Shown: positions 18,501-39,409, numbered from the stretch's first letter. The stretch: DNA of 53,591 bases from a virus (IMGVR_UViG_3300020477_000033:1-53591), one strand, 5' to 3'. Translations and numbers: made by a program. Notes: a model not told the origin generated them from the sequence alone.

Positions 18501-21500
18501 ATAAAAGAAACATGGTATTATGGATCAAATAATTTTAGAGACAATACTGGTTATACAGTACCTAGAGAAAGATTAGATTATAAATGGATTAATCAAGAAT
18601 TAGCAAAATTAAAAGTTAGATATAATAAAATTCCATCTTATAAACCTTTTATTAAAGACATAGAATTAGTAATTGATGCATATTTAAAGGCTAATCCTAG
18701 ATTTAGGTTTAAAGAATTAGCTAATAAAACTACTGAAGATTTAATGAAACTTGTTAACAATCATAGTAGATATATTGCAAACAAATTAACTCAAAAAACA
18801 GTAGATGGTAAAAGAAAGTTTACCCCAGAACAACTCTCTGCACTTACTCCTGAAACTTATGATAAATTTTCAAAGGATAATAATTTATTAAAATTAGAAC
18901 AAGCTATTAGATTTAGAGAAGATGCTTTAAATGTTTTATTTCAAAGAATTTCTCACTTTGATAGAACTAAAATGGTTAAACCTGAAAATAGAATAGCTTT
19001 ACTTAAATTAAAAAAAGAGATTTTGAGTAAAGGTTTAGAATCTGTTAATAAAAATGTTAAACTACCTAAAGAAACAAGTGATTTTATTAGAACACTTTAT
19101 CAGACTAATTCTGCTGATCAAATTTTAGATATCAATACTGTTAATAATAAAAAGATTGTTAAAACTAAACAAGAAGAAGTAGATACAGATATTAAGAAGT
19201 TTAAAAAAGAGCAAAAAAAATTAAAAGTTAGTAAGACAAAAAAGATTTACGGAACAGATCCAGAAGGAAAGAAAAAAGTTATTGGAGAAGAACTAGGAGA
19301 TGTTGATAATATCTTTGGAACACTAACATCTCAAAAGGAAGTATTAAAAGGTTTAGCAAGAAAGTTTAGAGATAAAAAACAAGATCCAGATGTAGTTAAA
19401 CAACGAACTGTATCAACTATTAAAAGAGCTTTTAAGAAACCATTTAGCTTTTTAGAACGTTTAGATAGTAATATTCTTGAGCCAATAACTCCAGAAAATC
19501 AAAAAGTTTTAGATGCTTTTAGAGGTTTAATAGAAAAACATCCTCAAGTATTAGAGAATTTAGATTGGTATTTTGGAAAATTTACAAAAGATAGTGAAGG
19601 AATTGTAAGAGATTTAGCTTCTATGAATAGTAAAGAGGCTCTTTTATTTGTAAAGCAATTAGAACGTTCTTTTAAACCTATGACAGGATTGGTTGGTAGA
19701 GATGGTAAGTTTAAAGAAAAACCAAGGAAGAGTGATCATGTATGGTTTTATGATTATGCTGGAGAAAGATTAGGATTTATGGAAAGTGATTTAGAATTAA
19801 AACCTATGCTTGAAAATAAAATGATGGTAAATGGAGATATTAAATCTGAATATATGGAGCAACCAATGTCTTCATTGCAGTTAATAAAAGAGCATATAGA
19901 TTTTACAGATACAATTACTAAAGCAGCTAGAGATAATATTGAGAAAACTCATGTTGGTCACTTTGGAGAAATTTTAACATCAGACAGTAAAGAACTTGCT
20001 AGACATCGTAAATTACTTGAAGAACATGCTATTAATAGTATTGAATATCTTGAAATAGGTAAAAATGAAAAGGCACGCAATAGCTTTCACAGTAATAACT
20101 ATTTAAAGAAAAAATATAAAGATTCTAAAAAGTTAATTGATCAATTACAAAATGAAGGAGTTAAAATACCTTATTTAGGTAATAATTTACCTCCTCATAT
20201 TTTTGTTCAAGAATTAATTAAGAAACATAAATCATTTACAAAATGGGTGGCAGATAGTTATATAGAATCTAGGCATAAAAATATTAAAGAAACTTTTCTA
20301 CATATTAGTTCATGGAATCCAAAATTCAAAATGTGGTTTCCTAAAGATGAATTTTCTAGAAAAGAAAAGTATACAGAAAAAGATGGATATAAGTATCAAA
20401 TTCAAGAACTAGAAAAGATGTTTTATGATAAAGAAACTGGTCTTTTTAAGCAAGATAGATATATAGCATATTATTATTCCCTTATGAACTATCAAGGAGC
20501 ATATATAAAAAGAGATGGAAGTACTAAAAAATCTGATATTACTGGACAGTTTAATAATAGAGAAATATCTCAACACTTACTACCAAGTTTTAATGATATG
20601 ATATTTATAAAAAATGCAATGAAAATAAAAGATAGAGCACAAGATAAATTTACAAAATGGGATTTAAGTAGACCTGAAAAATTAACACAAAAACAAAAAG
20701 ATAAAGTTAAAGAATGGGTTATGAGAGAAATTTCAGTAAATAGTGATTATATGAAAATGTTTGATAACTCTATAATTGAATCTGGTTATCACCCTAGAGT
20801 TGGTCATACAGAAATACAAAAAAATGCAGAAAAAATTCAAGAACTAATGTTAGAAATTGCTGATAAAGAAATGGCTACTATAACCACTCCAGATAAGTTA
20901 GATCCAGAAATTAGAAATCAAATGATTCTTGTTAATCCCGAAAGAGGAAGACCTCTTACTTTTACAGAAGCTAAACAATTACAAAAAGCAAAGATGTTAT
21001 CTTTAACTCAAGCAGAGTTTACTAATTCTGCACTTGAAGGACAGATGGGAAATGAGTTAGCAATTAGTGATTTAATGACTAGAGATAGATCTGGAAACAA
21101 TAGATACATAGGTGATTATACTCCTGCTAATATGCATAAAAGAGGACGTTGGATTATGCCTTTTTATCGATTAGATGTAGAAGCTTTAAGAAAATACGGT
21201 AATATACTCACTAAATCCCATTTAACTAATGTTACTGGTCTTAATCTTGAAATGATTGTTAAAAAATTTGATAGAGTTAATAATGTTGAAAATGATATAA
21301 ATGCTTTAGGTTGGTCTGGGTATTTAAGAGATGCTGCATTAAATATGATGGGAATGAGTCATCATAAGCCTATAGATATACATGGTATACAAGAAAAACA
21401 TAAACCGTTGTATCAAAGTTTTATCGATAATAATTTTTCAACAAAAGGTTTAAAGCTTTCAAAGGCAGAGCATGATTTAATATATGACTTTAAAAGATCT

Positions 21501-23111
21501 ATTGATATATCTCCTGATAGAAAAGCTAATTTAATAATGATGCATAAAGCCAATATCGAAAAAGCTGACAGTGCGTATTACAGAGAACTAAAAGCCAATG
21601 CAAGCCGTGTATTGAAACGTCCTAATTTAACAAATAAATACGGAAGTTTATACCACATGACTAGTGATGATGCTGTAGGTCGTAGAATGCAAGGAATTAA
21701 TGATGCTCTTGGAGGTAGATTATTTGGTCCACTATCTAGTGATCCTGCTCAAGCACGTTCTCAAGTAAATGAGGGAATTAGATATCTTAGTAATTTAGAA
21801 GGTAAGTATGAACTTGTTTCTTTATTGTCTGCTCCTAAAACTCCTATTACTAACTTTATAGGTGGTTTTGGTAATCTTATTACAGATGTTGGTTTAGGTC
21901 CTGTGAGAAAATCTTTTAATACTGAGTGGATGTTGAAGAATCTTTTTGTAGAGTATAATTATGAAACTGCACAAATGGAGCGTGCTACTTATGAATATGT
22001 TGATCCAGTAACTTCAAAAGTTGAACAAAAACCAATGACTAATAGAGAAGATATATTTAACTGGATGGATGGTAGTATTGGTGTATTTGACACTACACAA
22101 TTGCAATTAGTTGCTGTAGAAAAACATTTTGGTAGAAATAATGCAGCTACTGTAGTTAGAGAGTTTGCAAATAGATTAGCAGACGCTAGAGCATCTGGTT
22201 ATGATATGGTAACACCAGCAAGTAGAAACAGATTAAGAGAAGCTACTATGTGGGAGTTAGCAAGAGAATATAAAGTAACTGAATCTATTACTGATATGGG
22301 TGCTTTCTTCATGAGAGAATCTGAAAGAATACTTAGAGGACAAGCTTTCTTATCTGGTATGATATTCCATAAAACTAATACATTATCTACTCCTGATGGT
22401 TATGCTACTCGTAATATTTCATTTAACAATCCTGGGTTAATTAAACTATCTTTAGATACAGTTAAAGCTTCTCAGTTCCTTTATCAAGCTACTGAAAGAT
22501 CTAACTTCTCAAATACTGCACTAGGTCGTGTTATGACAAGATTCCAGCCTTATGCTTGGAATAGTATTAGAAGAAGACTTGATATATACAGAAATGCTAG
22601 ATCAGTAGGTTTTGACTATAAAAAGATAGCAAGTAAAAGATTTCAAAGACAAGTATCTTTTGATATGTTCTCTTTAGCACTAGCAAATGCATTTGTTGCA
22701 AGTATATTTGAATATTCACTATCACCACCAATGAATTGGATGCAAGATACAGCTCAATTACTATTAGGTGATGAAGAAGAAAGAGAACGTGCTTTCTTTA
22801 ATCAGTATCCATCTAAAGTGTTAGCACCATTGCAAGCAGTTACTCCACCAGCTGCAAGATTTATATTACCACCAATAACTGCAACTATAAATGGTAGTTA
22901 TGATAACTTCTTTAAGTTCCATGCAGCTACATATTTTCCATTTGGTAGATTAGGACGTGATCTATATAGAACATATCAGAGTCCTGCAATGGCTGTAGAT
23001 TTTATGACTGGGCTTCCTTTACATAGAATACATCAGTATAGACGTGATCAGATAGAAGCTAATAACGAAATTGAGAATATTGAGTCAGAAATTGACGATT
23101 CTGATGTTTAA
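12510..23111 (+). CDS. Giant multidomain virion protein with putative two-barrel RNA polymerase and SLOG domain
   Basis: LLRVP..(38 aa)..GADNDFD; DIFYESGGK; SGMQSGAD...RTIRNVNDNDATVIF...NIAG; Gly/Ala-rich N-terminus. Confidence 0.75.
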   Translation: MATPYNTQIDYLTNLRDVGIINPQEYLKRLDTSYRMKPNLFSEEDLDYIEKEHKKYDIKWNRDLQESGASLLSVVNQFTSGLVEGFTTIGWADEPDTAVERIAGSFGHLLGFAPDVIASVLSGGRYIPIAAAKQASKKSQKAVREGISKVASKSPSLLRKEISPNTFALRSIPMLVADKVLEHSKAALGSTNLTSLGFLSRGLLGKASVRNAAHQAVHLGVALGVSSWKDGPKAMIDATMHGAAAGAIFGSIGNYVRIGDMLRSKDTAQMGREAVKLASRQLYQDPNKYEAIEMLMKGSLGASFQGGLTTLQGAPLPDQIYEYLLGFFFGASAKSAGFMNRTKFINQRFFPSNENISRVKEKWQADPEYQALPKVDRQYIDSYLDSIRRQQLNIINSDRPSWAQGLSQTIKDIAKEKNIDLTEPITIEKKIILDNEQKKIEKIKTPKKDTVDNEGINVQMPEIPKNKEETFKMAYRKETGTETKNNLVASINSGMQSGADYGGLKGGKRRGAKTGGWITSDFKTKISGSKKQKDQLIKDYGLKLVTEPITVEVERGKKRTFPPESYPNRTIRNVNDNDATVIFALPEHIDKSVGTNKTIGYASEGKWVRGSSKKQLKSASYLSGYRPHIIITGGYKSKKMADIEAQNLTDFILNVTKKNNGKIPNINIAGHGNDRVPGNKTWKSFEDYVDYIVDKSLEGKVETSPIPPNVDNGGVEITASNPRPPKTVKDYAKERMGDYKHEISKGIEEIENASSDHSSKTILSRPTNIAAEYIVSQNKKLRLDTVKLEMNDLIEKSTSDIKFFEKLDIKFGVSIPENIRKELGRAYLIKRNLKEQTDHGIQNLKSFKKEPYKEEFNHEQFPSEDIDGTILVKYRTENKHDRHVKGTVEDVSYILSSVQIDQKQGRAFKTIDNVQGPILYKMEYKPILTHQVPKGKKEPITGKKAWEYTLTKEGLDAINQKLEKDGYYVSRAYKDKGVLEVTPYAISEKNPYKDNYLSKDDQVSVLKELWQSDRKPKTDVERKTLISNLYYLLREHSLKGIKGHGKITADSLIKGIREVRANDNQKLNYKDVVEYNKYASLDWATNIPLNRKDYNIYDAGSKTKAVYVPDLPAEVHKVIMLGNTDSVHLRRQDVFDAVAKRHYIDAKDDKIKLTAFRGARNDVNLIKNKIGTERVSDALDKLMHKFNIHDIFYESGGKTNKGNFNLARLRFNEKTKEYFFEGGINDKNIVDYNWNEWYIDLGVRQNSSHMNRGASVGKQLYDSISMSRIRGESIERGDRLDKAVSDWIDLSNAGDPVLGTEIINNFRAGKELTRDFDIHMVPEDVIIEMKNDVTRGGIDNPVFKQVLKKIVESNELDISSQVWDPQKSADLKKDIMEQYQVSEILNMHDYDPLVFTTHPYKDFINKALFRHLVNKKRQPRDPDAFQTTLNGLNAEELVLHKPRKNQGPNKIRTGVGDGLFMMGRDVRDKPVRIPQIKAIKTMGQAWDMLRNTKLDKTEAIAIQEVLDGQVLLRVPNSAVSGARVPRFGGFVNRDGIGLYVGPKDKYYMDGADNDFDEAFVFRNIPKELREEFARNQEFLKDEKGELINLETPPDWLIKDGYFTPYEAKTSNDVLIDMVTPWPRLEAGRSAAVGKESMGGAINSLDRQLSVMDAVINTKITEPSREIPYMLVNVTKTDNKQNAYFDNSFDHRIVLLDGKGKPMTSTNLKDYDVLLKQFEVDALKIKNGYADSPKYLNIPSNFQIAEMTWNKYFRVQRLSQGVWKDLGKHSSISWLNTTSTQAKYKNKAGKWIPVRKIQEIQNLADTYKLIHGMPSMKEINESPRVFNEFISNPNYRYDLQVYNTAKKLADRTDWTIDSFEYLQSYRGFEHLYDNSIEPYDFVLRMTTELQKRLINSKYFDKYGLIPNYRHETQAIFSLKRSGNFMFKNLKDIANKNYKTLAMTPTREIENHFDNALNLNVADYVSDMFITKVAKSRLTEMNVHEAFNLIKDIQTRVNQIKETWYYGSNNFRDNTGYTVPRERLDYKWINQELAKLKVRYNKIPSYKPFIKDIELVIDAYLKANPRFRFKELANKTTEDLMKLVNNHSRYIANKLTQKTVDGKRKFTPEQLSALTPETYDKFSKDNNLLKLEQAIRFREDALNVLFQRISHFDRTKMVKPENRIALLKLKKEILSKGLESVNKNVKLPKETSDFIRTLYQTNSADQILDINTVNNKKIVKTKQEEVDTDIKKFKKEQKKLKVSKTKKIYGTDPEGKKKVIGEELGDVDNIFGTLTSQKEVLKGLARKFRDKKQDPDVVKQRTVSTIKRAFKKPFSFLERLDSNILEPITPENQKVLDAFRGLIEKHPQVLENLDWYFGKFTKDSEGIVRDLASMNSKEALLFVKQLERSFKPMTGLVGRDGKFKEKPRKSDHVWFYDYAGERLGFMESDLELKPMLENKMMVNGDIKSEYMEQPMSSLQLIKEHIDFTDTITKAARDNIEKTHVGHFGEILTSDSKELARHRKLLEEHAINSIEYLEIGKNEKARNSFHSNNYLKKKYKDSKKLIDQLQNEGVKIPYLGNNLPPHIFVQELIKKHKSFTKWVADSYIESRHKNIKETFLHISSWNPKFKMWFPKDEFSRKEKYTEKDGYKYQIQELEKMFYDKETGLFKQDRYIAYYYSLMNYQGAYIKRDGSTKKSDITGQFNNREISQHLLPSFNDMIFIKNAMKIKDRAQDKFTKWDLSRPEKLTQKQKDKVKEWVMREISVNSDYMKMFDNSIIESGYHPRVGHTEIQKNAEKIQELMLEIADKEMATITTPDKLDPEIRNQMILVNPERGRPLTFTEAKQLQKAKMLSLTQAEFTNSALEGQMGNELAISDLMTRDRSGNNRYIGDYTPANMHKRGRWIMPFYRLDVEALRKYGNILTKSHLTNVTGLNLEMIVKKFDRVNNVENDINALGWSGYLRDAALNMMGMSHHKPIDIHGIQEKHKPLYQSFIDNNFSTKGLKLSKAEHDLIYDFKRSIDISPDRKANLIMMHKANIEKADSAYYRELKANASRVLKRPNLTNKYGSLYHMTSDDAVGRRMQGINDALGGRLFGPLSSDPAQARSQVNEGIRYLSNLEGKYELVSLLSAPKTPITNFIGGFGNLITDVGLGPVRKSFNTEWMLKNLFVEYNYETAQMERATYEYVDPVTSKVEQKPMTNREDIFNWMDGSIGVFDTTQLQLVAVEKHFGRNNAATVVREFANRLADARASGYDMVTPASRNRLREATMWELAREYKVTESITDMGAFFMRESERILRGQAFLSGMIFHKTNTLSTPDGYATRNISFNNPGLIKLSLDTVKASQFLYQATERSNFSNTALGRVMTRFQPYAWNSIRRRLDIYRNARSVGFDYKKIASKRFQRQVSFDMFSLALANAFVASIFEYSLSPPMNWMQDTAQLLLGDEEERERAFFNQYPSKVLAPLQAVTPPAARFILPPITATINGSYDNFFKFHAATYFPFGRLGRDLYRTYQSPAMAVDFMTGLPLHRIHQYRRDQIEANNEIENIESEIDDSDV

Positions 23112-24549: not shown

Positions 24550-26340
24550 TTATTGTATTTCTGTTTTATTAAATGTGAAAGTATTGTAGTCAAATTCTGC
24601 AATCATTTCAAATCTGCCTTCATCTCTAGATTTCTCAGAGTTGATGACTCTATGAATTTCGTTACGATTTCCCTTAACTACAAGAACTTTATCTGCTTTC
24701 TGTACAACATTGGTAGAACCTTTTAAAGAGTGTAATCCTACAACTCCTTGAGAAGCACTAACTTTATTGATATGATGTACTGCAATAACAATAGTATGAT
24801 TTCTTTGAGCTATGCCCTTTAAGCCATCTATAATATTGTTTTGCTTTTCTATGTCTGATGCTTTGTAATTAGATTGCAATTCATCAGTAGTATCTACAAC
24901 TAGAACATTTGGTTCATGTTGAGCTACTATCTTTTTAACAGCTTCGATATCTGGTGCTATAGTAACAATCTTAATATGTCCTAATTCATCTTGAAAAGAG
25001 ATCTCTGGATTATTTTTGTATTGATCAATAACCCATTGAGCATTCTTCTTTTTTGCAATTTGAACAAATCTTCTGAATGTTAATATTTCGTTCATTTCTA
25101 GTGATAGAAATAAAGTATCTTTTTTAGCTTTTGCTACAATGTTCTGAACAAAAGCTGATTTACCCATTCCTGTATCACCACTACAAATTACTAATTCACC
25201 TGGTTTAAATACAAAACTGTTACAGTTAAATATATCTTTCAGATCTATAGACTTCTTAGTCATATCATTTTCTATGTATGCTTTGAAGTAATCTTCAAGT
25301 GCCATAACATCTTTAATGTCCATCATGTAATCTTTTCTTTTAAAGTGAATACATTTTGGATCACAGTATTCTGCCATAATAACATCTTGACAACCATACA
25401 TATAGTTTTCTTCATATATATTGCTAACTGTTCTAGTTACTTCATCTGGATCGAGTTGTCCATTAGCCCAATTTATCATACCTTGTAAGGTTACAAGATA
25501 GGGAATACCTGCTCTCTTGTAAGAACTTGACATACGCATTATCTTTGTATTTCTGGAACCTTGTGTAGGTCCTTCATTAAAGATATGTTGTACGCAAGTA
25601 ACAACAGATGTAGTATCCCCTGTCTTGTTCGTATTGGATTGAACAACCGATGGTGAAGTAATTATGTACTTTTGTAAATAAGGTTCTACCTCTTTATTGG
25701 TATTTAAAGTATTGTAGAATCCTTCTTTTGATTTTGCAAAATTAGTATAACTTCTTTTAGAAGTTGCTATTTTACAAACATCACTATATGATAAGTCCCA
25801 TATGTATTGTATTGGTATGAATACTTTATACAACTTACTTTTTGGATTTAATGACCACTTGGATCTAATGATTCTAGTTTTGTCATATATATTATCTCCA
25901 AAAGTAAAGTATTCTTTCATTGTAGCTTTAACTTTAGTATGAAGATTTTTACTTGGTTGAAAACCAAATACATTTTGTAGTTCAATGTGATAACCATTTC
26001 CACTAAACCACAAATTAATATCTTCTTGCCTAACGTCAAAGTCAAACAACTCATTCAAGCAATATCTAACATATTCTTGGAACTTATCATCGTTGTGATC
26101 TGATTTGTCTATATCTATAGTAATAGTATCTACGTAAGCTAAACCGTCAAAACCTTTAACTGTTTTGTTAGTTAATACATAGTCACCAAAGGTTGAGTCA
26201 AATGAATAGTATGATCGGTACATTTCTTTACCAAAACTATTCTTTTCTTCAATCTTGTTATAGACATCTAATGTAGCTACTTTATTTCTATTTGATAGAC
26301 TACCTTGGATCACTTCGATTACAGTGTTTCTATTTTCCAT
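24550..26340 (-). CDS. AEP primase (prim-pol) fused to DnaB/RecA-type helicase
   Basis: DID, FSGNGYH, RIIR primase motifs; GSRN PriCT-like region; Walker A GDTGMGKS; SLEM; VVD; ADKVL. Confidence 0.88.
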   Translation of the reverse strand: MENRNTVIEVIQGSLSNRNKVATLDVYNKIEEKNSFGKEMYRSYYSFDSTFGDYVLTNKTVKGFDGLAYVDTITIDIDKSDHNDDKFQEYVRYCLNELFDFDVRQEDINLWFSGNGYHIELQNVFGFQPSKNLHTKVKATMKEYFTFGDNIYDKTRIIRSKWSLNPKSKLYKVFIPIQYIWDLSYSDVCKIATSKRSYTNFAKSKEGFYNTLNTNKEVEPYLQKYIITSPSVVQSNTNKTGDTTSVVTCVQHIFNEGPTQGSRNTKIMRMSSSYKRAGIPYLVTLQGMINWANGQLDPDEVTRTVSNIYEENYMYGCQDVIMAEYCDPKCIHFKRKDYMMDIKDVMALEDYFKAYIENDMTKKSIDLKDIFNCNSFVFKPGELVICSGDTGMGKSAFVQNIVAKAKKDTLFLSLEMNEILTFRRFVQIAKKKNAQWVIDQYKNNPEISFQDELGHIKIVTIAPDIEAVKKIVAQHEPNVLVVDTTDELQSNYKASDIEKQNNIIDGLKGIAQRNHTIVIAVHHINKVSASQGVVGLHSLKGSTNVVQKADKVLVVKGNRNEIHRVINSEKSRDEGRFEMIAEFDYNTFTFNKTEIQ

Positions 26341-26579
26341 CCTTTTACCTTACCATTCGTATTGTGTTGTATTTCAGTTAAACTAATACCATGTTTATCT
26401 AATACATTACTTTCACGTATCTTTCTAAATGTCCTAGAATAAGAACTTGCAGTATGTACCTTACCTGTTGTAAGTCTTCCATAAACTGGTATTGCTTCTT
26501 CAAATTCATAACTATAGAAGTTAGCATTGGATCTAACACGACTTTTGATCCAGTTAACTACTATTTCTTCCATAGTCAT
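26319..26579 (-). CDS. Hypothetical protein, possibly winged-helix DNA-binding
   Basis: 86 aa, coupled between SSB and primase. Confidence 0.55.
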   Translation of the reverse strand: MTMEEIVVNWIKSRVRSNANFYSYEFEEAIPVYGRLTTGKVHTASSYSRTFRKIRESNVLDKHGISLTEIQHNTNGKVKGWKIETL

Positions 26580-27130
26580 TAGAATGGTAAGTCATCAGAT
26601 TCAACTTTATCACCTGCATCATTATTGATTAATGTGTCCATGACATCTTGTTCCATCTGTGACGGTTTCTTATAGTCTTTTGGATAACCTTTCTCAACTT
26701 GTTTCATAAACAACTTTTCAAGATCATCTTTTTTGTTAAGACTAGATACAACACCCCATGTATTTCTCTTATATTTTCCTGTGGAACTATAAGTAATACA
26801 TGCTATTTCCTTATCAACTAAAGCTTCTAAAGATTTAGGTGATAAAGTACCATTGTCAGAAACATTTAAGTCTGCTCCTGCAGCTAGGTATAAGGTATTA
26901 AGATCTGCTGGAAATGCCATATCTACAACAACACCATTAGTATCTTTATCAAAGTTCTGATTAACAAAGCATGTATACGTATAGCTGTTATCTTTGTCTT
27001 CTAATGATAATTTAATACTAAGATCAGTGTATTGACTTTCCATTACTTCAGCGTCAGTAATTTTACACTCATTAACGAAATAGTTTCTAAGTGTTGTTCC
27101 TGATGCTACTTTTGTACCTGTAATTGCCAT
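26579..27130 (-). CDS. Single-stranded DNA-binding protein
   Basis: Acidic C-terminus ending DDLPF; replication context. Confidence 0.7.
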   Translation of the reverse strand: MAITGTKVASGTTLRNYFVNECKITDAEVMESQYTDLSIKLSLEDKDNSYTYTCFVNQNFDKDTNGVVVDMAFPADLNTLYLAAGADLNVSDNGTLSPKSLEALVDKEIACITYSSTGKYKRNTWGVVSSLNKKDDLEKLFMKQVEKGYPKDYKKPSQMEQDVMDTLINNDAGDKVESDDLPF

Positions 27131-27131
27131 A

Positions 27132-27410
27132 TTATTGTTCTCCTGTTAGTGGATCTTCACTATCAGCTGCTTCCATATTGTCCATAGCATGATCCAAATT
27201 ACGTTCTCTAGCAGCTTCTTCATATTGTGTATTCAATTTTTCTAAATACTGTTTGAAGTTTTGTAAACATTTTGACATGTCTATAGTTCCTTCTTCTAGT
27301 ATAGGTAAATTGTACAATATAAAGTGGCCTTGACTGTTTACAAAGTTTTCAATGTCTCCTGGCTCTGCAGTTACATTGTATCTTTCAACAGATTCTTTAT
27401 TTACTTCCAT
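27132..27410 (-). CDS. Hypothetical acidic protein
   Basis: GAGGAGG RBS before 27410. Confidence 0.6.
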   Translation of the reverse strand: MEVNKESVERYNVTAEPGDIENFVNSQGHFILYNLPILEEGTIDMSKCLQNFKQYLEKLNTQYEEAARERNLDHAMDNMEAADSEDPLTGEQ

Positions 27411-27975
27411 CTGCAACCTCCTCAACTGGTGCTGGGATAGACTTTGTAAAGAAATCCATAGTCTTATTGTATCTTACTTTAGTATCGTAAAATCCAGCAG
27501 ATCTTCTGTCTCTGTATGTTTTGAAATGTTCTTCACCGATATATGGCTTAACTTTCCTAGATAATGTATCTAACTTATCTAACATATCTACAGTTACAGC
27601 TGATTTCTTTTGTGCTGCTTTTGCATTTTCTACTTCTTCTTTAGAAGCAATTGCAAAGTCACCACCAAATCCTGCAAATGCAAGAGCTCTTCCAACTGCA
27701 GATGTTTCACAATTTTCTAGAGCTGATGTTTTGTTTACAAATCCAGTATTATCACGTTCGGCTGCATAGCCTGTGTAATAAATTTCTGGTTCTTGTAATG
27801 GGTTTGGGACCACCGTTGCTTTAACAACATATTCATTGCATTGTTCTCCGCTTGGTGTGTCTGTTATAGAACTTACTGAGACTAATTCAGTTTGAATTGT
27901 AGATCCTGGATAATCTGATAAGAATCCAGCTAATCTATCTTTTACTTCAGTATATTCTTTACCTTTAAACTTCAT
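27397..27975 (-). CDS. ssDNA annealing protein (Rad52/Sak-like)
   Basis: Y..V..RL N-terminus; SALENCETSAVGRALAFAG motif. Confidence 0.75.
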   Translation of the reverse strand: MKFKGKEYTEVKDRLAGFLSDYPGSTIQTELVSVSSITDTPSGEQCNEYVVKATVVPNPLQEPEIYYTGYAAERDNTGFVNKTSALENCETSAVGRALAFAGFGGDFAIASKEEVENAKAAQKKSAVTVDMLDKLDTLSRKVKPYIGEEHFKTYRDRRSAGFYDTKVRYNKTMDFFTKSIPAPVEEVADGSK

Positions 27976-28151: not shown

Positions 28152-28604
28152 TTATTTTTCTGCTTTAGAAAGCGGAACTAATTCCGTTTCTTCAAAATTA
28201 CAATATTCACATATTGCTATCATTTCGTAATCATTGTCTATGTATGTGCTGCCATCATTTGGATTTATAAACTGTTGTATATAAACTCCTGGAGATATGC
28301 AGTTACTACATACTAAGGTATCATCGTCATTCTCATAGAATAAGTCAGTATTTTTAATTAGTTTTATGTTATCAACTAATTTTTTTCTATCATCTTGTGA
28401 TAAGTCTAATTTCCTATCATCCAATATATTTGATAGTGTTCTAAGTATATCTACATATAAAGCTTCAACTTTATATGCTACAACAAGCTTAATAAGAACA
28501 TAAAACATGTGATCTTCCTCACCATTAAAGTGATTCTTTTCATCGTGCCACATGTAATCTAATATTTTATGTATTTGATTTGTGACTTCAGTAGTATATT
28601 TCAT
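28152..28604 (-). CDS. Hypothetical protein with C-terminal Zn ribbon
   Basis: CSNC...CEYC. Confidence 0.65.
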   Translation of the reverse strand: MKYTTEVTNQIHKILDYMWHDEKNHFNGEEDHMFYVLIKLVVAYKVEALYVDILRTLSNILDDRKLDLSQDDRKKLVDNIKLIKNTDLFYENDDDTLVCSNCISPGVYIQQFINPNDGSTYIDNDYEMIAICEYCNFEETELVPLSKAEK

Positions 28605-28924: not shown

Positions 28925-29596
28925 TTATTGATTATCCACAACTCCAGATCTTCTCATTGTAAGACTTGGAAAGTGAAATGATAACTCTTTATAGTAAACA
29001 CTATTAGTAAGTAATTTCTTTATAGTGTCTGAAATAAAGCTACCAGACATGTTACTGCAATAACTTGTTGCTTTTGCATTACATGGTTCTGGATCACCTT
29101 GTTCGTCACTATACCAGTGTTTAATATAAGCATTTAAAGTAGGACTTGCAAGAACTACTTGGTGATAATGCTCTGCTCCCATTCTACCATCTATTACAAA
29201 AGCTGGTCTATCTGAGTGCAATATTATCTCCATAGCTTCTTTTCTTGAAGCCATTGAGTCAAATCCTAATACAACTACATCGTTAGTAGCTGAGTTTCTA
29301 GGTCTCCAGTCATTTACATTAAATCTATTATTGAATGTATTTACTGCACAATCTGGATTTATCTTCTTTAGCTGCTCTCTTAAAGCTTCTACTTTTAACT
29401 TGTTAAGATCTTCACGAGTATATTGCGATACTCCTATATTCTCAGTGCCAACTGTATCCATATCATACAGAACAAGATTATTAGCACCCATTCTTACTAG
29501 CTGAGTAGCAGCAGCACTACCTATTGCTCCACATCCTAGTATATGGTAAGTATACTTATCATAGTTATTAACTAATCCTTCGTATCTTTCTCTCAT
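28925..29596 (-). CDS. ThiF/MoeB/E1-like adenylating enzyme
   Basis: ILGCGAIGS, YDMDTVG..N, KVEAL, GFD, DGRMG; candidate catalytic Cys in EPCNAK. Confidence 0.92.
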   Translation of the reverse strand: MRERYEGLVNNYDKYTYHILGCGAIGSAAATQLVRMGANNLVLYDMDTVGTENIGVSQYTREDLNKLKVEALREQLKKINPDCAVNTFNNRFNVNDWRPRNSATNDVVVLGFDSMASRKEAMEIILHSDRPAFVIDGRMGAEHYHQVVLASPTLNAYIKHWYSDEQGDPEPCNAKATSYCSNMSGSFISDTIKKLLTNSVYYKELSFHFPSLTMRRSGVVDNQ

Positions 29597-29832
29597 TTTT
29601 TGTTCCTCCTATACTTTAGAAACTGTTTGTATTCTTTGTGAAATTGCATTATCCAGGGTAATCTCCTGTAGACTCTAGGGTTCCATCCTTCAAAGTACCA
29701 CCATCCATTTCCTGTTTCTTTATGAATGGCCTTTCTAGCTTCAGCTTCTGCTTTCTTAGTCTTGAAAGGCCACTCTTTGGATTTGTACTTTTTGATAGGA
29801 TTACCATTATGGTCGTATGATTCTCCTTTCAT
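29593..29832 (-). CDS. Small basic aromatic-rich protein within Ubl cassette
   Basis: 79 aa, coupled between JAB and E1. Confidence 0.65.
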   Translation of the reverse strand: MKGESYDHNGNPIKKYKSKEWPFKTKKAEAEARKAIHKETGNGWWYFEGWNPRVYRRLPWIMQFHKEYKQFLKYRRNKK

Positions 29833-29834
29833 AG

Positions 29835-30689
29835 TTAATTACCCCACAAATTAAGTTGTTTTTTAACTACAGTAATTAAGGTAGCAGCATTAAATCCATC
29901 TTTATTTGTTGATGCTAATTTGTCTATCTCTCTTTTTGTAGTTTCTTTTACTCTTAATTCACTTCTGTTTCCTTCTAGTTCTTCATTTAATGCAGTAATT
30001 CTCTCATTAAACTCTTTATACTTGATAGTTTCACAGTAGTAATCAGTAAGCATGTCATCAAGAACAGATTCTAACTGTGTATATTCCTGATCCATTTCAT
30101 TCACTTGATTCCAGTAATTATTATTGCTATAATAATAGTTACTTGGAATTATTGGTTTATGCTTACTAGCTATTTTTACAGTAGGTATATCAGAACATAA
30201 TTTCTTATATTCTTTAACTATACTTTTAGGTATTTTCTTTTCTGGCCTTATAATATCTATAGTTAAGTCTTGGTGTGCCTCTATTGGTTGCCAAATATTA
30301 ACTCTAAATAGATATTCTTCTTTCAGGTTAACTACTAACGACATACTGACACTACCAGTTTTAGTAGTGTCAATAGTTGCTAGGTCGGTACCTGACCAGA
30401 AAGCTGCCATAGTATGATGACTATGCCACCATACAAATACTATATCTTTACCAGCATGCTTTATTGCTGTTTTAGAATAGTATTTTGCTAAGGCTTCTTT
30501 ATCAAGTATAGTGTTACTACCACTAACTTGTTGTTTAAGGATAACTGGTTCAGACAATACAAAGTCACCATCATTGTTCTTAGATGCTATTAACATACCA
30601 CCTATTTCTGACTGATCTTCTTCCCATGCCACTTTGGCATACATTATTATCTTGTCCCAGTCTTGACTATCCATTTTGAACTTACTCAT
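29835..30689 (-). CDS. JAB/MPN+ metallopeptidase
   Basis: EIGG...WWHSHHTMAAFWSGTD (E, HxH, S, D); start 30689 coupled to the upstream stop. Confidence 0.9.
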   Translation of the reverse strand: MSKFKMDSQDWDKIIMYAKVAWEEDQSEIGGMLIASKNNDGDFVLSEPVILKQQVSGSNTILDKEALAKYYSKTAIKHAGKDIVFVWWHSHHTMAAFWSGTDLATIDTTKTGSVSMSLVVNLKEEYLFRVNIWQPIEAHQDLTIDIIRPEKKIPKSIVKEYKKLCSDIPTVKIASKHKPIIPSNYYYSNNNYWNQVNEMDQEYTQLESVLDDMLTDYYCETIKYKEFNERITALNEELEGNRSELRVKETTKREIDKLASTNKDGFNAATLITVVKKQLNLWGN

Positions 30690-33193
30690 CGGTTGTTTCT
30701 CCTTCTTATGTGTGCAGACCATTCTGCTCTACCTTCTTCCGTGGTAAAGTCAAATGAACTGCTATTTGCTTCATCCTCAGCAACTCTTTCTGATATTATA
30801 TTATCAAGGAAATCAGCTACTGTTTCTTCTGTATCTACATGCACTTCCTCAGGTTCATGCACAGCTTCGTTAATTTCTTCTCTTTGCATTTGAGATATTA
30901 CTCTAGCACAAAGATCGTAAAGAAACATTTCAAGAGGGTATTCACCTTCTGACATACTTTCTTCATACTTAGTTACGAAGTGGTAGTTTTGAGGATCTTT
31001 GCTTGCTTTTATTTCAAGATATGTATCTGTAAATACTTTATACATATCTATTACTGACAATGTATAATCTGATTCATACCTATAAGCTGAATGGTAATTT
31101 CTAAGTATAGGCCTTGATTCTGGGTTAGCAGCCTCTCTTAGCATCTTTCCATATGTATTTTCTTCAGATTGTAGAATTGCAGTGTCTTCTAGCTCCTCGA
31201 TATCACGATTGACCTGGTATTGTGTATTTTTCCAGTTTTCAACTTTTTCTGATTGATATTCGAAACTTAATGTCTCCTGAATTACTTCTTTGATAAAGTA
31301 TTCATCAAAGTTTTCTGATCCTGTATGTATTACATTATCTAAATCAGGTGCATTACTATCTCTTCTACTTCTACCGTATCCTCTATATCTACTGCCCATG
31401 TGATCAGGCTTTTTAGATCTAAAGTATCTGAATGCTGCTTGTATTTTGTTGACATACTCACTTATATGTTGAAAATAGTATCTATCATCAGATTTAAGAA
31501 GTGCGATACTTGTTAAATCAAAGTTAACTGATCTACAATCTTCTACAAAGTCAAAGTATCCAAATGGTCTGCTAATCTTTTGACCTAGACCATTTCTTAG
31601 TAGTAACTGACCAGCAGCCCAGTCAGTACTTCCTCTCTTTTCTCCCATACCTTCAGAATCTGGAGGTAGTGTTAGTATACAGTTGTTTAGAGAGTTTAGT
31701 GGATTTGTTCTGTCATTGTAGTAGTCCATCCACTTTGTTAAGAGAATTCCTAAGCCAGTAAAGTTACCTTTTCTACCAGCCTGATAGATATCATTCTGAA
31801 GGTTACCAAAGCAACAAGCTTTTGGCATAGAGTGAGTAAACTGCCACTCTCTGTCATAATTTCTATCTCCATTTTGAGTGAAATGTTTCTTAAGTTCACC
31901 CTCTCTTATCATACCTTCTTTCTCTTTTCCAAACATGTCCTTAAACAATTTACTGAAGAATTTCTTCTGAGTAAGTACTCCCCAGCCAGATTGTCCAGTT
32001 CTACTTGTTCTGTTAATGAATGGAAAGAAGGTTCCGTCATTATGTCCGTGATATATTCCTGATACATCAAATCCTGACATACTGTGGTAGCTACCTTCTT
32101 CAAAGTCGTAATTGCTGTATCCAGGGTCTTCTAATTCACTTCGATACATTCTTTGTTGAGGGTCACCACCTAACCAAGTTATTGATCTATCTCCCAACAT
32201 AAGTGGTAGATTACTATGATGATCCTGTCTATTTAGCATTTCATGTAACCATTCTTTTCTACTTTCATATGGTTCTGGCTTATTATCTTCCATTGGACCA
32301 TATTTACAAAAGCTATTTTTAGAACTGTCATATTCTTGCCAAATACCATACCAGTCATCTATCCATCTTTGTACTAGTGATGTTAAGTGATATCTAAATA
32401 ATACTGTTACAGGTTCTGTATCTATATCACCTATATATTCACTATCATTTGTATGGTATTTTATTGTTGGATTATGAAAATGAACTGCTACAATAAACTC
32501 TTTATGTAAATTTCTATACATATCTAGTGCTTCTATGTAAGGTTCATCTATTTTGTATCTGTTTCCGTTGTAAGTCATTCTTGATTCTGATGTTGATTCA
32601 GATCTTTGTATTCCTTGCAAACTAACAAAGTATGGATGTATGCTAATATTTTCTGAATTTTTATACATTTCAATTCCAGAATCTACATTATTAAAGAACC
32701 ATTCTAGTGCTTCATCTAGAAAGTTTTCCATTCTTTTTCTTTCAGACTCATCTGTTAAGTTGTTTTTACCAACACTTTTAATTTGCTTTAATGACGTCTC
32801 TATTGAATCTAAGTCATTTTGTGCTCTCATCCATTGTCTTCTAGTTGACTTTGGTCTTCTAACAAACTTAAGTCCAATAGCACCACCTTTATTGAATTGT
32901 AGTAATCTATCAACAAACAATTGTTCTATTGTATTGACAGTTCCTCTTTGCCAATTAAGTTTATTAGTTAGTCCTATATCTTCTAAAGGACTAAGCACTG
33001 ATCTATTATTGTTAAGATATCTTGGTCGTATCCAGTCATTATTGAATTGTTCTATCTTTTCCATTAACATTTTAAGTGGACCATCTAGAACTACCTTAGA
33101 TATCATTGCACCTGACATGTGATCAGATGATTTGCTTGGTTTATATTCTTCTATATCCAAACTTCTTCTTCCATATGTGTGTTCTAAGTTCAT
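30686..33193 (-). CDS. Large protein with putative prokaryotic E2-like domain
   Basis: FPFI...CCFGN (C460/C461)...W..YYN pattern; lies between Ubl and JAB. Confidence 0.55.
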   Translation of the reverse strand: MNLEHTYGRRSLDIEEYKPSKSSDHMSGAMISKVVLDGPLKMLMEKIEQFNNDWIRPRYLNNNRSVLSPLEDIGLTNKLNWQRGTVNTIEQLFVDRLLQFNKGGAIGLKFVRRPKSTRRQWMRAQNDLDSIETSLKQIKSVGKNNLTDESERKRMENFLDEALEWFFNNVDSGIEMYKNSENISIHPYFVSLQGIQRSESTSESRMTYNGNRYKIDEPYIEALDMYRNLHKEFIVAVHFHNPTIKYHTNDSEYIGDIDTEPVTVLFRYHLTSLVQRWIDDWYGIWQEYDSSKNSFCKYGPMEDNKPEPYESRKEWLHEMLNRQDHHSNLPLMLGDRSITWLGGDPQQRMYRSELEDPGYSNYDFEEGSYHSMSGFDVSGIYHGHNDGTFFPFINRTSRTGQSGWGVLTQKKFFSKLFKDMFGKEKEGMIREGELKKHFTQNGDRNYDREWQFTHSMPKACCFGNLQNDIYQAGRKGNFTGLGILLTKWMDYYNDRTNPLNSLNNCILTLPPDSEGMGEKRGSTDWAAGQLLLRNGLGQKISRPFGYFDFVEDCRSVNFDLTSIALLKSDDRYYFQHISEYVNKIQAAFRYFRSKKPDHMGSRYRGYGRSRRDSNAPDLDNVIHTGSENFDEYFIKEVIQETLSFEYQSEKVENWKNTQYQVNRDIEELEDTAILQSEENTYGKMLREAANPESRPILRNYHSAYRYESDYTLSVIDMYKVFTDTYLEIKASKDPQNYHFVTKYEESMSEGEYPLEMFLYDLCARVISQMQREEINEAVHEPEEVHVDTEETVADFLDNIISERVAEDEANSSSFDFTTEEGRAEWSAHIRRRNNR

Positions 33194-33320: not shown

Positions 33321-33614
33321 TTAAATTGACAACAGTTCCTGGTAGTATCTTACGAGTCCACCAGTTTTGTTCTCATTTACGAAAGTGATATACAATGTGC
33401 CATCAGCGTTTTCGTAGTCAGTAAAACTTTTTGCTTCGTCAAGAGCTTGTGTCTCTCCTACGTATGTTACAGCATCACTGACATTTGTGTGTCCTGCTTC
33501 TGATAAGTGACTTCTTAGAGTTCTAAGATTCACTACTTCAGAAGGAACATCTAATGATGTAAAGTGCTGAGCACCTGGCATCATTACCTTTAAAACAACA
33601 GAATTTTCACTCAT
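33321..33614 (-). CDS. Ubiquitin-like (beta-grasp) precursor
   Basis: Beta-beta-alpha pattern; YITFVNENKTGG (G85-G86) then an 11-aa tail; E1/JAB context. Confidence 0.75.
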   Translation of the reverse strand: MSENSVVLKVMMPGAQHFTSLDVPSEVVNLRTLRSHLSEAGHTNVSDAVTYVGETQALDEAKSFTDYENADGTLYITFVNENKTGGLVRYYQELLSI

Positions 33615-35940: not shown

Positions 35941-36303
35941 CTAGCCGCCGAAAGTAGGACCAGATGGCAACTTCTCTGACTTCTTGTAGTAGACGGCTAC
36001 ACACTCGTGTGTGCCGCTACCAAAGAACTTGTCAGTGAGTTTCTCCATATGCACACTACCTTGGTATTGTGCTTGGAGAGACTGCTTGGCTGTGTCCCTA
36101 TCTTTGTCTGTTAGGACCGAAGATGGATCGTAAGCCATTACGACAACTCGCCAATCATTACTTCTGATTTCTTCAGGAGTAAGGTTGATGATGTCATCAT
36201 CTGGCAACTCGACTTCATCTAAATTGAAGTCGAAAACTTTCAAAACGACTTTCACTGATAAGTCGTTTAGCGATTTGCTAAACTTTTTATCTGGTTCACT
36301 CAT
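35941..36303 (-). CDS. First early gene, hypothetical
   Basis: AAGGAG RBS; 120 aa; visibly more GC-rich than neighbours. Confidence 0.75.
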   Translation of the reverse strand: MSEPDKKFSKSLNDLSVKVVLKVFDFNLDEVELPDDDIINLTPEEIRSNDWRVVVMAYDPSSVLTDKDRDTAKQSLQAQYQGSVHMEKLTDKFFGSGTHECVAVYYKKSEKLPSGPTFGG

Positions 36304-37924: not shown

Positions 37925-39409
37925 GTGAATAAACAAAAAATGTTATTAGAGATGCAACAGGATATGTTGTTGTTTGGTAGAATGGTAATGCCAAACATGT
38001 TTAGTGAGAATTCTCCACCCTTTCACTATGAAATTACTAAATACCTACAGGATGACGATATAAAACAATTAAATGTAATTGCTCCTCGTGGTCATGCTAA
38101 GAGTTCAGTAGTTGCTGGTGTTTACCCTTTATTCCATTTAATGTTTGATCAAGGTGTAAAAGTAATTGTATTAGTATCTAGAACACAACAACATGCTGTA
38201 AAGCTTTTAGGTACAATAAAAGATGTATTAGACTATTCACAAGAGTTTAGATACTTTTTTGGATATTGGGGGGCAAACTCTGCAAGAAAATGGACCAATA
38301 CAGAAATAGAGCTAAAAGACGGTTCTGTTATTATTTGTAAGGGTACAGGTCAGCAGATAAGAGGAATCAAACACGGAAACCAACGTCCTACTCTGTTGAT
38401 CCTTGATGACCCTGAAGATGAAAATAATACCAAAACTGCAGAAGCTATGGAATATAATCTCAGATGGTTATTGCAGAGTGGTGTCCCTTCTCTAGATCCT
38501 AAACGTGGAAAGATATGTGTTATTGGTACTCCCCAACACGAACGGTGTATGGTAGAAACACTAAAAGATATGAAGGGTTGGAAAAACTTTACATTTAAAC
38601 CAGACCTGGAAAATAATTTTGCTTTATGGCCTGAGGTATGGCCAGTCGATAAATTAAAACAAAAGAAAGAAGAATTAGATAGTATTAATCGTCTTTCTGT
38701 GTTTTATAGGGAATATTTATGTGAAATCGTTGGAGATGAAGATGCTTTGTTCAGACAAGAGTTTATTCAGACATACGATGGATTTATAGAAAGAACAGAG
38801 GAAGGGTTGTCGAACCTTGTCCTGACGAAGCTTAATGGTGAGGAAGTAGACATTGTTCGACCTGTAAATGTGTTTACAGGCATCGACCCTGCTTCTAGCA
38901 CTAAAAGTACTGCTGACTATTCAGTTATATTTAACTTGGCAGTAGATGAAGATAATAACAGATTTTGCTTACCATACTATAGAAAAAGAGCAACACCATT
39001 AGATTTAGCAGATGCTATTATACATAATTTTAAACAGTATAAAAGTCAAAGAACAAGGATTGAGGCTGTTGGATATCAGGAAATGTTAAGACAATATATT
39101 AAAGAACAATCTGAGCAACTGGGATTATTTATACCTGGATTAGAAATAAAAGAAAATCCTAGAACTAGAAAGTCTTTTAGATTAGAAAGTTTACAGCCAT
39201 TGTTTGCAAATTATAAAGTTTTCATAAAAGAAGATCAACAAGCCTTGTTAGATGAGCTATTATTATACCCTAGAGGTAAACATGATGACTTGTTAGATGG
39301 GTTCTTTTATGCTAATAAAAATTGCTATAGACCCCATCATGAAGCTAAAAAAGTATATGAAGAGCCAGAATATATGCAATTTACTAAAAAAAGTTGGAAA
39401 ACTCTGTAG
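37925..39409 (+). CDS. terL: Terminase large subunit
   Basis: APRGHAKS Walker A; LILDD Walker B; IGTP; GIDPA; HDDLLD. Confidence 0.95.
   Translation: MNKQKMLLEMQQDMLLFGRMVMPNMFSENSPPFHYEITKYLQDDDIKQLNVIAPRGHAKSSVVAGVYPLFHLMFDQGVKVIVLVSRTQQHAVKLLGTIKDVLDYSQEFRYFFGYWGANSARKWTNTEIELKDGSVIICKGTGQQIRGIKHGNQRPTLLILDDPEDENNTKTAEAMEYNLRWLLQSGVPSLDPKRGKICVIGTPQHERCMVETLKDMKGWKNFTFKPDLENNFALWPEVWPVDKLKQKKEELDSINRLSVFYREYLCEIVGDEDALFRQEFIQTYDGFIERTEEGLSNLVLTKLNGEEVDIVRPVNVFTGIDPASSTKSTADYSVIFNLAVDEDNNRFCLPYYRKRATPLDLADAIIHNFKQYKSQRTRIEAVGYQEMLRQYIKEQSEQLGLFIPGLEIKENPRTRKSFRLESLQPLFANYKVFIKEDQQALLDELLLYPRGKHDDLLDGFFYANKNCYRPHHEAKKVYEEPEYMQFTKKSWKTL

Follow-up and report, generated by a model that had tools for sequence, protein, structure and literature searches.

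What does a phage do with an 835-aa protein whose gene lies between one for a small ubiquitin-like protein (Ubl) and those for a JAB peptidase and an E1-like enzyme? The question is raised by the viral record IMGVR_UViG_3300020477_000033, a stretch of 53,591 nucleotides (hereafter the window). It has a GC content of 32% and a CheckV completeness of 100, and it represents a complete phage genome that encodes a large terminase, a portal protein, a major head protein, a tail fibre protein, a primase-helicase, and a 3533-aa open reading frame (ORF). The 835-aa protein, here called X, had been taken in the original prediction, made from the DNA sequence alone, for an unusually large E2-like protein with a candidate catalytic cysteine in its middle and additional domains that might select substrates in the manner of an E3. 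Judged from sequence, X represents a new family that is specific to phages and has one invariant cysteine, and its gene fills the E2 slot of a phage-borne Ubl–JAB–E1 cassette. It is thus probable that this phage brings protein-tagging machinery of its own, X standing between the Ubl and the JAB/E1 pair where bacterial Ubl operons have their E2 enzyme.

The predicted ORF is real and has the expected 835 codons; it is on the minus strand, which had not been specified, and its ATG start is preceded by a TAGGAGT sequence resembling a ribosome-binding site about 8 nt upstream. An exhaustive HMMER search with X against 1.84 billion representative proteins returned 28 homologs at E ≤ 1e-3 (13 at ≤ 1e-10 and 2 at ≤ 1e-30), and the ORF is therefore more than a chance reading frame. 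Most of these homologs are 590–720 aa long and none carries a name. After two apparent fragments were dropped (P0004, 457 aa; P0024, 124 aa), X and 26 homologs were aligned (alignment A1), and a further 37 loci with 29 distinct X homologs came from scanning IMG/VR and marine metagenomes for sequence patterns, among them a divergent short form of 489–514 aa. The combined set comprises 41 distinct sequences of 489–835 aa. A one-pattern contig scan of limited sensitivity found no homolog in 185,579 prokaryote genomes, and on the sequences collected the family is phage-only.

Annotated families and structures have little to say about this protein. The only row in a Pfam scan of X was NuiA at E 0.15, below its cut-off, NCBIfam gave a single chance-level match, PHROGs and PADLOC gave none, and a sequence search of the PDB returned one irrelevant row at E 0.49; the regions flanking the candidate cysteine are thus as free of recognizable motifs as had been stated. 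Among 27 family members, none matched a PHROG and none matched a relevant Pfam family. PDB sequence searches with alignments A5, A4, A3, and A7 and a tblastn search of a phage collection with X were equally unproductive, and a word-indexed protein search with X and with A1 recovered only a twin of 98% identity.

Conservation within the family is concentrated in few positions. Ten columns are invariant in the 41 sequences (G38, P39, N51, T76, W81, P391, C461, G463, W488, and P498), and none of them is a His, Asp, or Glu. C461, the second cysteine of the CCFGN motif (residues 460–464), is a cysteine in 41/41 sequences at a mean column identity of ~22% (alignment A5), and the neighboring C460 is a cysteine in just two. 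The candidate catalytic cysteine has thus passed the check on conservation that had been proposed for it. Papain-like, transglutaminase, and GATase-type hydrolases were considered and rejected for X, as no His, Asp, or Glu is invariant and Foldseek against the PDB found no such fold; the C-x-G at a helix start does recall a nucleophile elbow. The second motif that had been singled out, FFPFI, occupies residues 389–393, 71 residues before CCFGN. Only its proline is invariant (P391 in 41/41): the preceding position is H in 30/41, F in 6/41, and Y in 5/41 sequences. The distance from P391 to C461 varies from 19 to 70 residues across the family, with the longest spacer in X of this genome.

The best-conserved part of X lies in its N-terminal ~180 aa, which an AlphaFold2 (AF2) model of the full-length protein renders as long helices (residues 28–55, 106–116, 118–142, and 149–176). 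Overall the model has a predicted local distance difference test score (pLDDT) of 58.8 but the N-terminal domain is good, with values mostly of 80–93 over residues 41–190, 71–76 at residues 11–40, and 60 at residues 141–150. The extra length of X is accounted for by two insertions that are missing from most relatives. That its additional regions are lineage-specific and fast-evolving is what would be expected of a specificity element, in line with the suggested role in substrate selection. The acidic tail is also borne out (14 D/E versus 2 K/R in residues 751–800). At the extreme C-terminus (30689..30760 in X), 11/41 homologs, including all four short forms, end in W-x(3-6)-GG followed by 1–13 residues, and the position of this GG corresponds to RRR in X. 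The W-x(3-6)-GG end resembles the tail of a Ubl.

The Ubl ends in ...ITFVNENKTGG (GG, residues 85–86, 33357..33362) followed by the 11-residue tail LVRYYQELLSI, and it has no match in Pfam. Related phages encode Ubls of 95–116 aa at the same place; in the 14 that were aligned (A7) the GG is invariant, and 5/14 stop exactly at GG and the others add 1–11 residues. The Ubl of the short-form lineage has 69–71 aa (...NDKTGG plus two residues), and the 69-aa protein of locus L011 scores 22.8 bits with the Pfam model ThiS (PF02597), for which the cut-off is 22.5. Aligned to this protein by hhalign, A7 scores a probability of 68.7% and E 4.5e-5; the link of the Ubl in this genome to PF02597 runs only through the L011 relative. 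The JAB protein has an intact JAMM motif, H-x-H-x7-S-x2-D, in HSHHTMAAFWSGTD (30384..30425), and it probably starts at the ATG at 30689; this codon shares the sequence ATGA with the stop codon TGA of X, and AAGGAG lies upstream of it. The E1 has the nucleotide-binding GCGAIGS and two invariant cysteines in ..EPCNAKATSYCSNMSGSF.. (alignment A6), and its family consists of single ThiF domains of 216–232 aa without CxxC pairs.

We counted gene order around the 29 distinct X homologs within the 37 loci. A JAB gene directly follows X in 16/16 loci with at least 400 nt of room, a ThiF-type E1 is present in 14/14 loci with at least 1700 nt of room, and a small ORF ending in K.GG lies at most 1.3 kb upstream of X in 26/28, the misses being L031 and L032, the latter with only 411 nt of sequence. 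The short-form lineage keeps the cassette although two other genes separate its Ubl from X. These are genes for a 173–193-aa protein (...CEESGGFII[SC]) and a 76–77-aa zinc-ribbon protein (L011 9248..10011, L033 3260..4029, L031 1905..2135). The order kept in the short-form lineage and the same layout in very distant phages, described below, argue for a functional cassette. Its components diverge at different rates: between this genome and seven relatives, identity is 22% for the Ubl, 25% for X, 37% for JAB, 53% for E1, and 62% for the primase-helicase, and neighboring replication proteins are 60–63% identical. The recognition-type components, Ubl and X, evolve fastest.

These data bear on whether X belongs to the cassette at all. 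Its function could be unrelated to Ubl, JAB, and E1, for example in replication or anti-defence, with the gene merely inherited alongside; the marine loci are related, with primase-helicases 59–88% identical, such that synteny could be inherited, and conservation is far lower in X than in JAB and E1. We nevertheless consider this very unlikely, as X and JAB overlap or abut (−22 to +2 nt in the relatives), co-occurrence is complete wherever it can be tested, the arrangement survives in the divergent short-form lineage despite the inserted genes, and crAss-like and FpV4 phages also have a gene in this slot.

Whether X is an E2 is a separate matter. When the complete genome was searched in six frames, none of the models UQ_con, Prok-E2_A to E, HECT, and zf-RING_2 matched at E ≤ 1; at the level of Pfam, this upholds the earlier remark that neither a RING nor a HECT gene can be seen. 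Three related marine records (91–100% complete) and the phages cr111_1 and FpV4 were likewise without a match to UQ_con or to Prok-E2_A, B, or D. With no other recognizable E2 or E3, X is the only cassette-linked protein besides E1 with a conserved cysteine. In the ubiquitin-conjugating (UBC) fold of E2 enzymes, a first helix is followed by a four-strand antiparallel sheet, the active-site loop, and helices α2–α4, and an HPN motif stands ~8–10 residues before the cysteine. FFPFI does not hold up as an HPN-like motif: its family pattern is [HFY]-P-[FY], Asn is found in the place of the HPN asparagine in 0/41 sequences, and the spacing to the cysteine is that given above. None of the 27 members scanned matched any E2 model in Pfam at E ≤ 0.01.

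We examined the fold in the 602-aa homolog of locus L004, whose residues 150–420 were modeled by AF2 from a 39-row alignment with high confidence (pLDDT 89.9, predicted template modeling score 0.86). The core model contains nine strands. It begins with a strand, a helix, a four-strand meander, and three helices, followed by a strand and, after it, the [H]P[FY] motif; then comes a three-strand meander, the last strand of which runs into the invariant cysteine that starts a helix, and after a second helix, which closes at the invariant tryptophan, a short strand, P-L-N, and further helices complete the domain. This is not the UBC arrangement, as the cysteine sits at a strand–helix junction after a small β-meander, unlike its loop position in UBC. 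Foldseek with the core model found no match in the PDB at E ≤ 1e-3 (best row E 0.41) in a copy of that database that postdates the paper announcing the BilB entries 8TZ0 and 8TYZ, and the full-length model of X found nothing either (best E 0.92). Among predicted viral structures (BFVD) there were six matches with E from 3e-9 to 4e-6, all nameless viral proteins of 423–592 aa, and weak rows for crAss-like phage proteins of 373–435 aa (E 0.2–0.4, TMq 0.36–0.39, ~250–280 columns). The ESM Atlas yielded no lead above 0.83. The core, as modeled in the L004 homolog, is a confidently predicted fold without a solved counterpart detectable by Foldseek.

X could still have a genuine UBC/E2 or RWD/UBC-like superfold that has diverged to an extreme and whose similarity is hidden by large insertions, and the order of its elements (helix, four-strand meander, helices, [H]P[FY], Cys, helices) loosely recalls α1-β1-4-HPN-Cys-α2. 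The rows that Foldseek returned at chance level include a kinetochore chain (8ow1_P, E 0.75; also 8ovw_P), an RWD domain (2dmf, E 1.1), and Ubc12 (E 1.5, template modeling [TM] scores 0.13/0.18), the last being the best-scoring E2. We take the kinetochore chain, which is not named in the Foldseek table, to be CENP-P, an RWD protein. In the ESM Atlas, residues 150–420 of family member P0008 led to a cluster of viral proteins, 11% of which carry Prok-E2_D; this cluster, at a score of 0.79 was the sole Pfam-bearing one among the best 4 of 30 neighbors and is a lead only. Ubc12 is also the protein named as the closest structural homolog of BilB (PMC10557695). All of these signals are at chance level (E ~1, TM 0.13–0.22, Atlas score <0.8), the nine strands and a cysteine directly after a strand, starting a helix, do not fit UBC, the motif in the HPN place lacks a conserved His and always lacks the Asn, and Pfam E2 models do not match; we therefore give this possibility very little weight.

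Because neither sequence profiles nor fold comparison gave a significant match, we do not assign X to the UBC/E2 superfamily, and on present sequences it is best described as a new, phage-specific family rather than a detectable member of that superfamily. Of the E2-like label, the positional part stands, namely the invariant cysteine, the E2 slot in Ubl-?-JAB-E1, and the absence of another recognizable E2, and the part that concerns an E2 sequence family and an E2 fold is not supported; structure prediction with Foldseek, which had been proposed as a check, gave no E2 at E ≤ 1e-3. A variable cysteine or a match to an unrelated fold family would have told against the label altogether, but the cysteine is conserved and no such match was found.

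The partners of X suggest another possible role, in a sulfur-carrier pathway of the ThiS/MoaD/CysO/QbsE type, in which the E1 would make a Ubl-thiocarboxylate, JAB would trim the Ubl or release the product, and X would be a new sulfur-relay or sulfur-inserting enzyme with a persulfide on C461, perhaps thiolating a nucleotide, tRNA, or phage DNA. The cassette resembles ThiS/MoaD–ThiF/MoeB plus JAB systems (CysO/Mec+, QbsE/QbsD) in a small, apparently ThiS-like GG protein, linked to Pfam ThiS as described, a minimal ThiF E1, and a JAB that may be able to trim past GG, and JAB peptidases accompany sulfur-carrier Ubls in operons described by Iyer et al. (2006; PMC1779556). With its 223 aa in one ThiF domain, the E1 has its best curated matches among ThiS/MoaD adenylyltransferases (NCBIfam ThiF/MoeB-type), and the cassette sits in a replication and nucleotide-metabolism module. 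The same E1 falls below every curated equivalog cut-off, however (78.8 bits vs. 159), and a large, fast-evolving protein with one invariant cysteine sets the cassette apart from these systems; two metabolic enzymes that work as a pair would not usually diverge as rapidly as Ubl and X do. Neither Pfam nor NCBIfam shows a PP-loop, rhodanese, pyridoxal phosphate, or radical-SAM signature in X, and no ThiG, MoaE, CysM, TtuA/PP-loop, rhodanese, or IscS was seen among the cassette proteins and the neighbors scanned, the rest of the genome not having been searched for these families. Gene order, moreover, matches that of the conjugation operons given in PMC10557695. Taken together, a sulfur-carrier pathway seems to us unlikely, with a probability that is small without being negligible.

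A comparable block of genes occurs in distant phages. In a tblastn search with the E1, 78 phage records were matched with identities of 26–41% among the matches listed, the highest values over partial matches only, and almost all are crAss-like phages (among them crAss001, DAC15, the PhiCrAssBcn series, and cr111_1) or FpV4-like phages of Flavobacterium. The four-gene layout is found at E1 identities of 26–29% in cr111_1, FpV4, and crAss001 (Gp79–Gp76). In the three records examined, a 211–289-aa protein is followed by a hypothetical protein of ~420–444 aa, a JAB/metalloprotease-domain protein, and ThiF, with annotations that read hypothetical, metalloprotease, or "thiamine biosynthesis protein". 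The first ~85–90 residues of the 211–289-aa protein look, by eye only, like a putative Ubl ending in K.[IV][KR]SG[GA]; unlike the Ubl of this genome, the putative domain carries a C-terminal extension of 120–200 aa, and these crAss and FpV4 proteins showed no significant similarity to the Ubl family in hhalign. Homology to the counterparts in this genome is detectable for the JAB-domain protein of FpV4 and for ThiF of both cr111_1 and FpV4, and the JAB of this genome did not match the cr111_1 protein, labeled metalloprotease-domain in its record, at E ≤ 1e-3.

The ~420-aa proteins in the second slot form a family of their own, with 63 matches (crAss001 Gp78 at E 2.3e-80) and no relevant match in a Pfam scan. 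Like X they have an invariant Cys-x-Gly; their other invariants, Y-x-HSH and E-S-x-x-G-x-P, with the HSH 16 residues before the Cys, distinguish them. In the top local hhalign alignment between the two families, CFGN..W is paired with CLG.GP..W. Because the slot-2 proteins are not significantly similar and their Ubl-like neighbors are putative, we call the block of crAss-like and FpV4 phages analogous, and possibly homologous, to the cassette.

How, then, might X work? We tentatively favor the reading, to which we give somewhat less than an even chance, that X is a noncanonical, Cys-dependent acceptor and transfer protein for the Ubl that acts through C461, with the function of an E2/E3 and with its variable parts choosing the targets. 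JAB would trim the 11 residues beyond the GG of the Ubl, as its intact JAMM motif and the relatives that stop at GG suggest, and the ThiF-type E1 would, by its family membership, adenylate the exposed glycine. The activated Ubl might then move onto C461 at the strand-to-helix junction, and X would deliver it to lysines of target proteins, its conserved N-terminal helical domain docking the conserved partners and its insertions and acidic tail selecting the targets, which may be host or phage proteins made early in infection. JAB may also undo the conjugation. A thioester carrier fits better than a hydrolase because C461 is invariant while no His, Asp, or Glu is, and a role for JAB beyond trimming of the tail is suggested by the phages that keep JAB with Ubls that stop at GG (5/14). 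The retention of JAB in these phages argues mildly for deconjugation and hence for protein tagging; a release of product of the CysO/Mec+ type would explain it, too. A complex prediction for E1, Ubl, and X(1–420) of L004 gave scores of 0.00, 0.52, and 0.00, which speak neither for nor against binding.

Several findings weigh against a transfer role for X. No Pfam E2 profile matches X at E ≤ 1, and its E2- and RWD-like structural rows are at chance level. The E1 is a minimal ThiF of the sulfur-carrier-pathway kind. Homology of X to the slot-2 proteins of crAss-like phages is not established (hhalign E 0.16–0.17, not significant), and the gene order shared by the marine loci is largely inherited and not independent evidence, since these loci are close kin. 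Nor need the cassette contain an E2, because the archaeal SAMP/UbaA and the Thermus TtuB/TtuC systems achieve conjugation without one.

The last point leads to a different assignment, in which attaching the Ubl would be the work of the minimal E1 by itself, on the E2-independent pattern of SAMPylation or TtuB conjugation, and X would be the main substrate, a scaffold, or an adaptor that brings targets. In its favor are the lack of an E2 fold or profile for X and the known E2-less conjugation by ThiF-type E1s; the tight linkage of X with Ubl, JAB, and E1 fits equally well, and the conserved C-terminal motif after the acidic linker would be docking-like, with its Ubl-tail-like W..GG in 11/41 homologs. 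It is hard to see why a merely passive target should retain a single invariant cysteine in a conserved C-x-G motif at ~22% identity, and the N-terminal domain of X is conserved like an interaction or catalytic module, which makes this assignment rather improbable in our view.

The closest known arrangement is that of the BilABCD operons, ISG15-like anti-phage systems of bacteria, which have the gene order Ubl-E2-DUB-E1 (DUB, deubiquitinase; Chambers et al., PMC10557695), with BilA as Ubl, BilB as E2, BilC as JAB DUB, and BilD as E1. The cassette has the identical order Ubl-[slot 2]-JAB-E1, a Gly-ended Ubl that may need JAB trimming, and, as in the operons described there, no E3. Its slot-2 protein likewise combines a cysteine with a hypervariable region; in BilB this is a loop between β4 and the Cys that is proposed to choose targets (PMC10557695). 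In other respects the two differ. The cassette is phage-encoded, in a complete genome of 53.6 kb, rather than located in a host defence island, and its E1 is a single ThiF domain of 223 aa where BilD is described with an IAD/AAD/CYS architecture and a Zn site. The slot-2 family, at 489–835 aa, has an unmatched fold and X matches no E2 in PADLOC or Pfam, whereas BilB has the UBC fold. BilB proteins are ~150–200 aa in length. From type II CBASS comes a second likeness, as the strongest matches of the E1 in the PADLOC defence library are to the E1 part of Cap2 "E1-E2" models (best 4.4e-16) and JAB matches CBASS JAB models; here, however, no E2 is fused to E1, there is no CD-NTase, a free Ubl is present, and X is unrelated to the E2 part of Cap2, since the PADLOC matches cover the E1 region only.

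To our knowledge, accounts of Ubl conjugation in bacteria have until now cast it as a weapon of the host against its phages (Bil, CBASS Cap2/Cap3, and Bub), and if our reading is true, a complete phage-borne Ubl/JAB/E1 cassette would show the viral side using the same chemistry. We know of no description in the literature of a phage Ubl-X-JAB-E1 cassette or of ThiF in Crassvirales; supplementary tables, such as lists of Bil operons or crAss gene families, could list such genes, and a prior mention is possible. Going further, it is conceivable, although we regard it as doubtful, that at least three distant groups of lytic phages (the marine clade, which has a 3533-aa protein of N4-like size; the gut Crassvirales, to which crAss001 belongs; and the FpV4-like Flavobacterium phages) carry Ubl conjugation machinery whose E2/E3 step is performed by a new-fold single-cysteine enzyme X, used early to tag host proteins, such as defence or replication factors, or their own proteins, as a viral mirror image of Bil. 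Either X transfers the Ubl as an enzyme of a new kind or the pathway serves a purpose other than protein tagging, and both outcomes would be informative. The crAss-like phages belong to a very abundant group of human gut viruses, and the analogous cassette occurs in cultivated members. Direct tests are within reach, since three systems that have the analogous block can be grown in culture, namely crAss001 with B. intestinalis, DAC15 with B. thetaiotaomicron, and FpV4.

Table 1. Positions of the cassette genes, of the parts of X, and of analogous blocks; coordinates refer to the window unless another record is named.
Feature	Position	Strand	Remarks
X (P0001), 835-aa protein	30686..33193	minus	longest member of the apparently phage-only family
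X aa 28–180, helical N-terminal domain	32654..33112	minus	best-conserved part; invariant G38, P39, N51, T76, W81
X aa 181–535, core α/β domain (predicted)	31589..32653	minus	with three conserved motifs
X insertion 1, aa 285–372	32078..32341	minus	lineage-specific, low model confidence
X motif 1, FFPFI = [HFY]-P-[FY]-[IMVFL]	32015..32029	minus	only P391 invariant
X insertion 2, aa 398–449	31847..32002	minus	lineage-specific, low model confidence
X motif 2, CCFGN = C-[FLYWVA]-G-[NDST]	31802..31816	minus	C461 (31811..31813) and G463 invariant
X motif 3, W488 ... P498-L499-N500	31694..31732	minus	W and P invariant
X aa 751–835, acidic linker and conserved amphipathic basic end	30689..30943	minus	..EW....RRRNNR
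Ubl, ThiS-like β-grasp protein, 97 aa	33321..33614	minus	directly upstream of X
JAB/JAMM metallopeptidase	29835..30722	minus	Pfam Prok-JAB 8.4e-6, 26.1 bits vs. cut-off 25; PADLOC JAB models
79-aa ORF	29593..29832	minus	separates JAB from E1 in this phage alone
Minimal E1-like adenylyltransferase, ThiF family, 223 aa	28925..29596	minus	Pfam ThiF 4.8e-23
Accessory 150-aa protein	28152..28604	minus	C-terminal ~50 residues a CxxC...CxxC zinc-ribbon
Analogous block, crAss001 Gp79-Gp78-Gp77-Gp76	L040 741..5151		
Analogous block, cr111_1 gp_23289-23286			
Analogous block, FpV4 gp53-gp50			
Analogous blocks, further coordinates	L013 3761..7636; L014 3610..7621		

Small zinc-ribbon ORFs follow the E1 gene in seven related loci and are absent in L004, L015, and L026; the 150-aa zinc-ribbon protein is an optional neighbor that could be an accessory of the cassette. 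Homologs of the 79-aa ORF lie upstream of the cassette in L003, L004, L005, and L008, and this small gene has therefore moved. Neither this ORF nor a 77-aa ORF among the cassette genes qualifies as a Ubl, as they have no GG-ended β-grasp pattern, no Pfam match, and no syntenic counterpart. A 120-aa ORF at 35941..36303 (minus strand) that ends in ...PTFGG was likewise rejected as the cassette Ubl; it has a homolog in L001 only and no Pfam match, and it is probably unrelated.

On the far side of the cassette, a strongly conserved block at 24550..27975 (minus strand) follows in all long-form relatives and encodes a 192-aa phrog_11717 protein, proteins of 183 aa and 86 aa, and the 596-aa primase-helicase; the 192-aa protein has, by eye only, a Rad52/Sak-like look. 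Elsewhere in the genome, the terminase (37925..39409) is only ~25% identical to those of cultivated phages, N4-like ones included, and the 3533-aa protein is encoded by a single ORF at 12510..23111 on the plus strand, which in size equals the virion RNA polymerases of N4-like phages.

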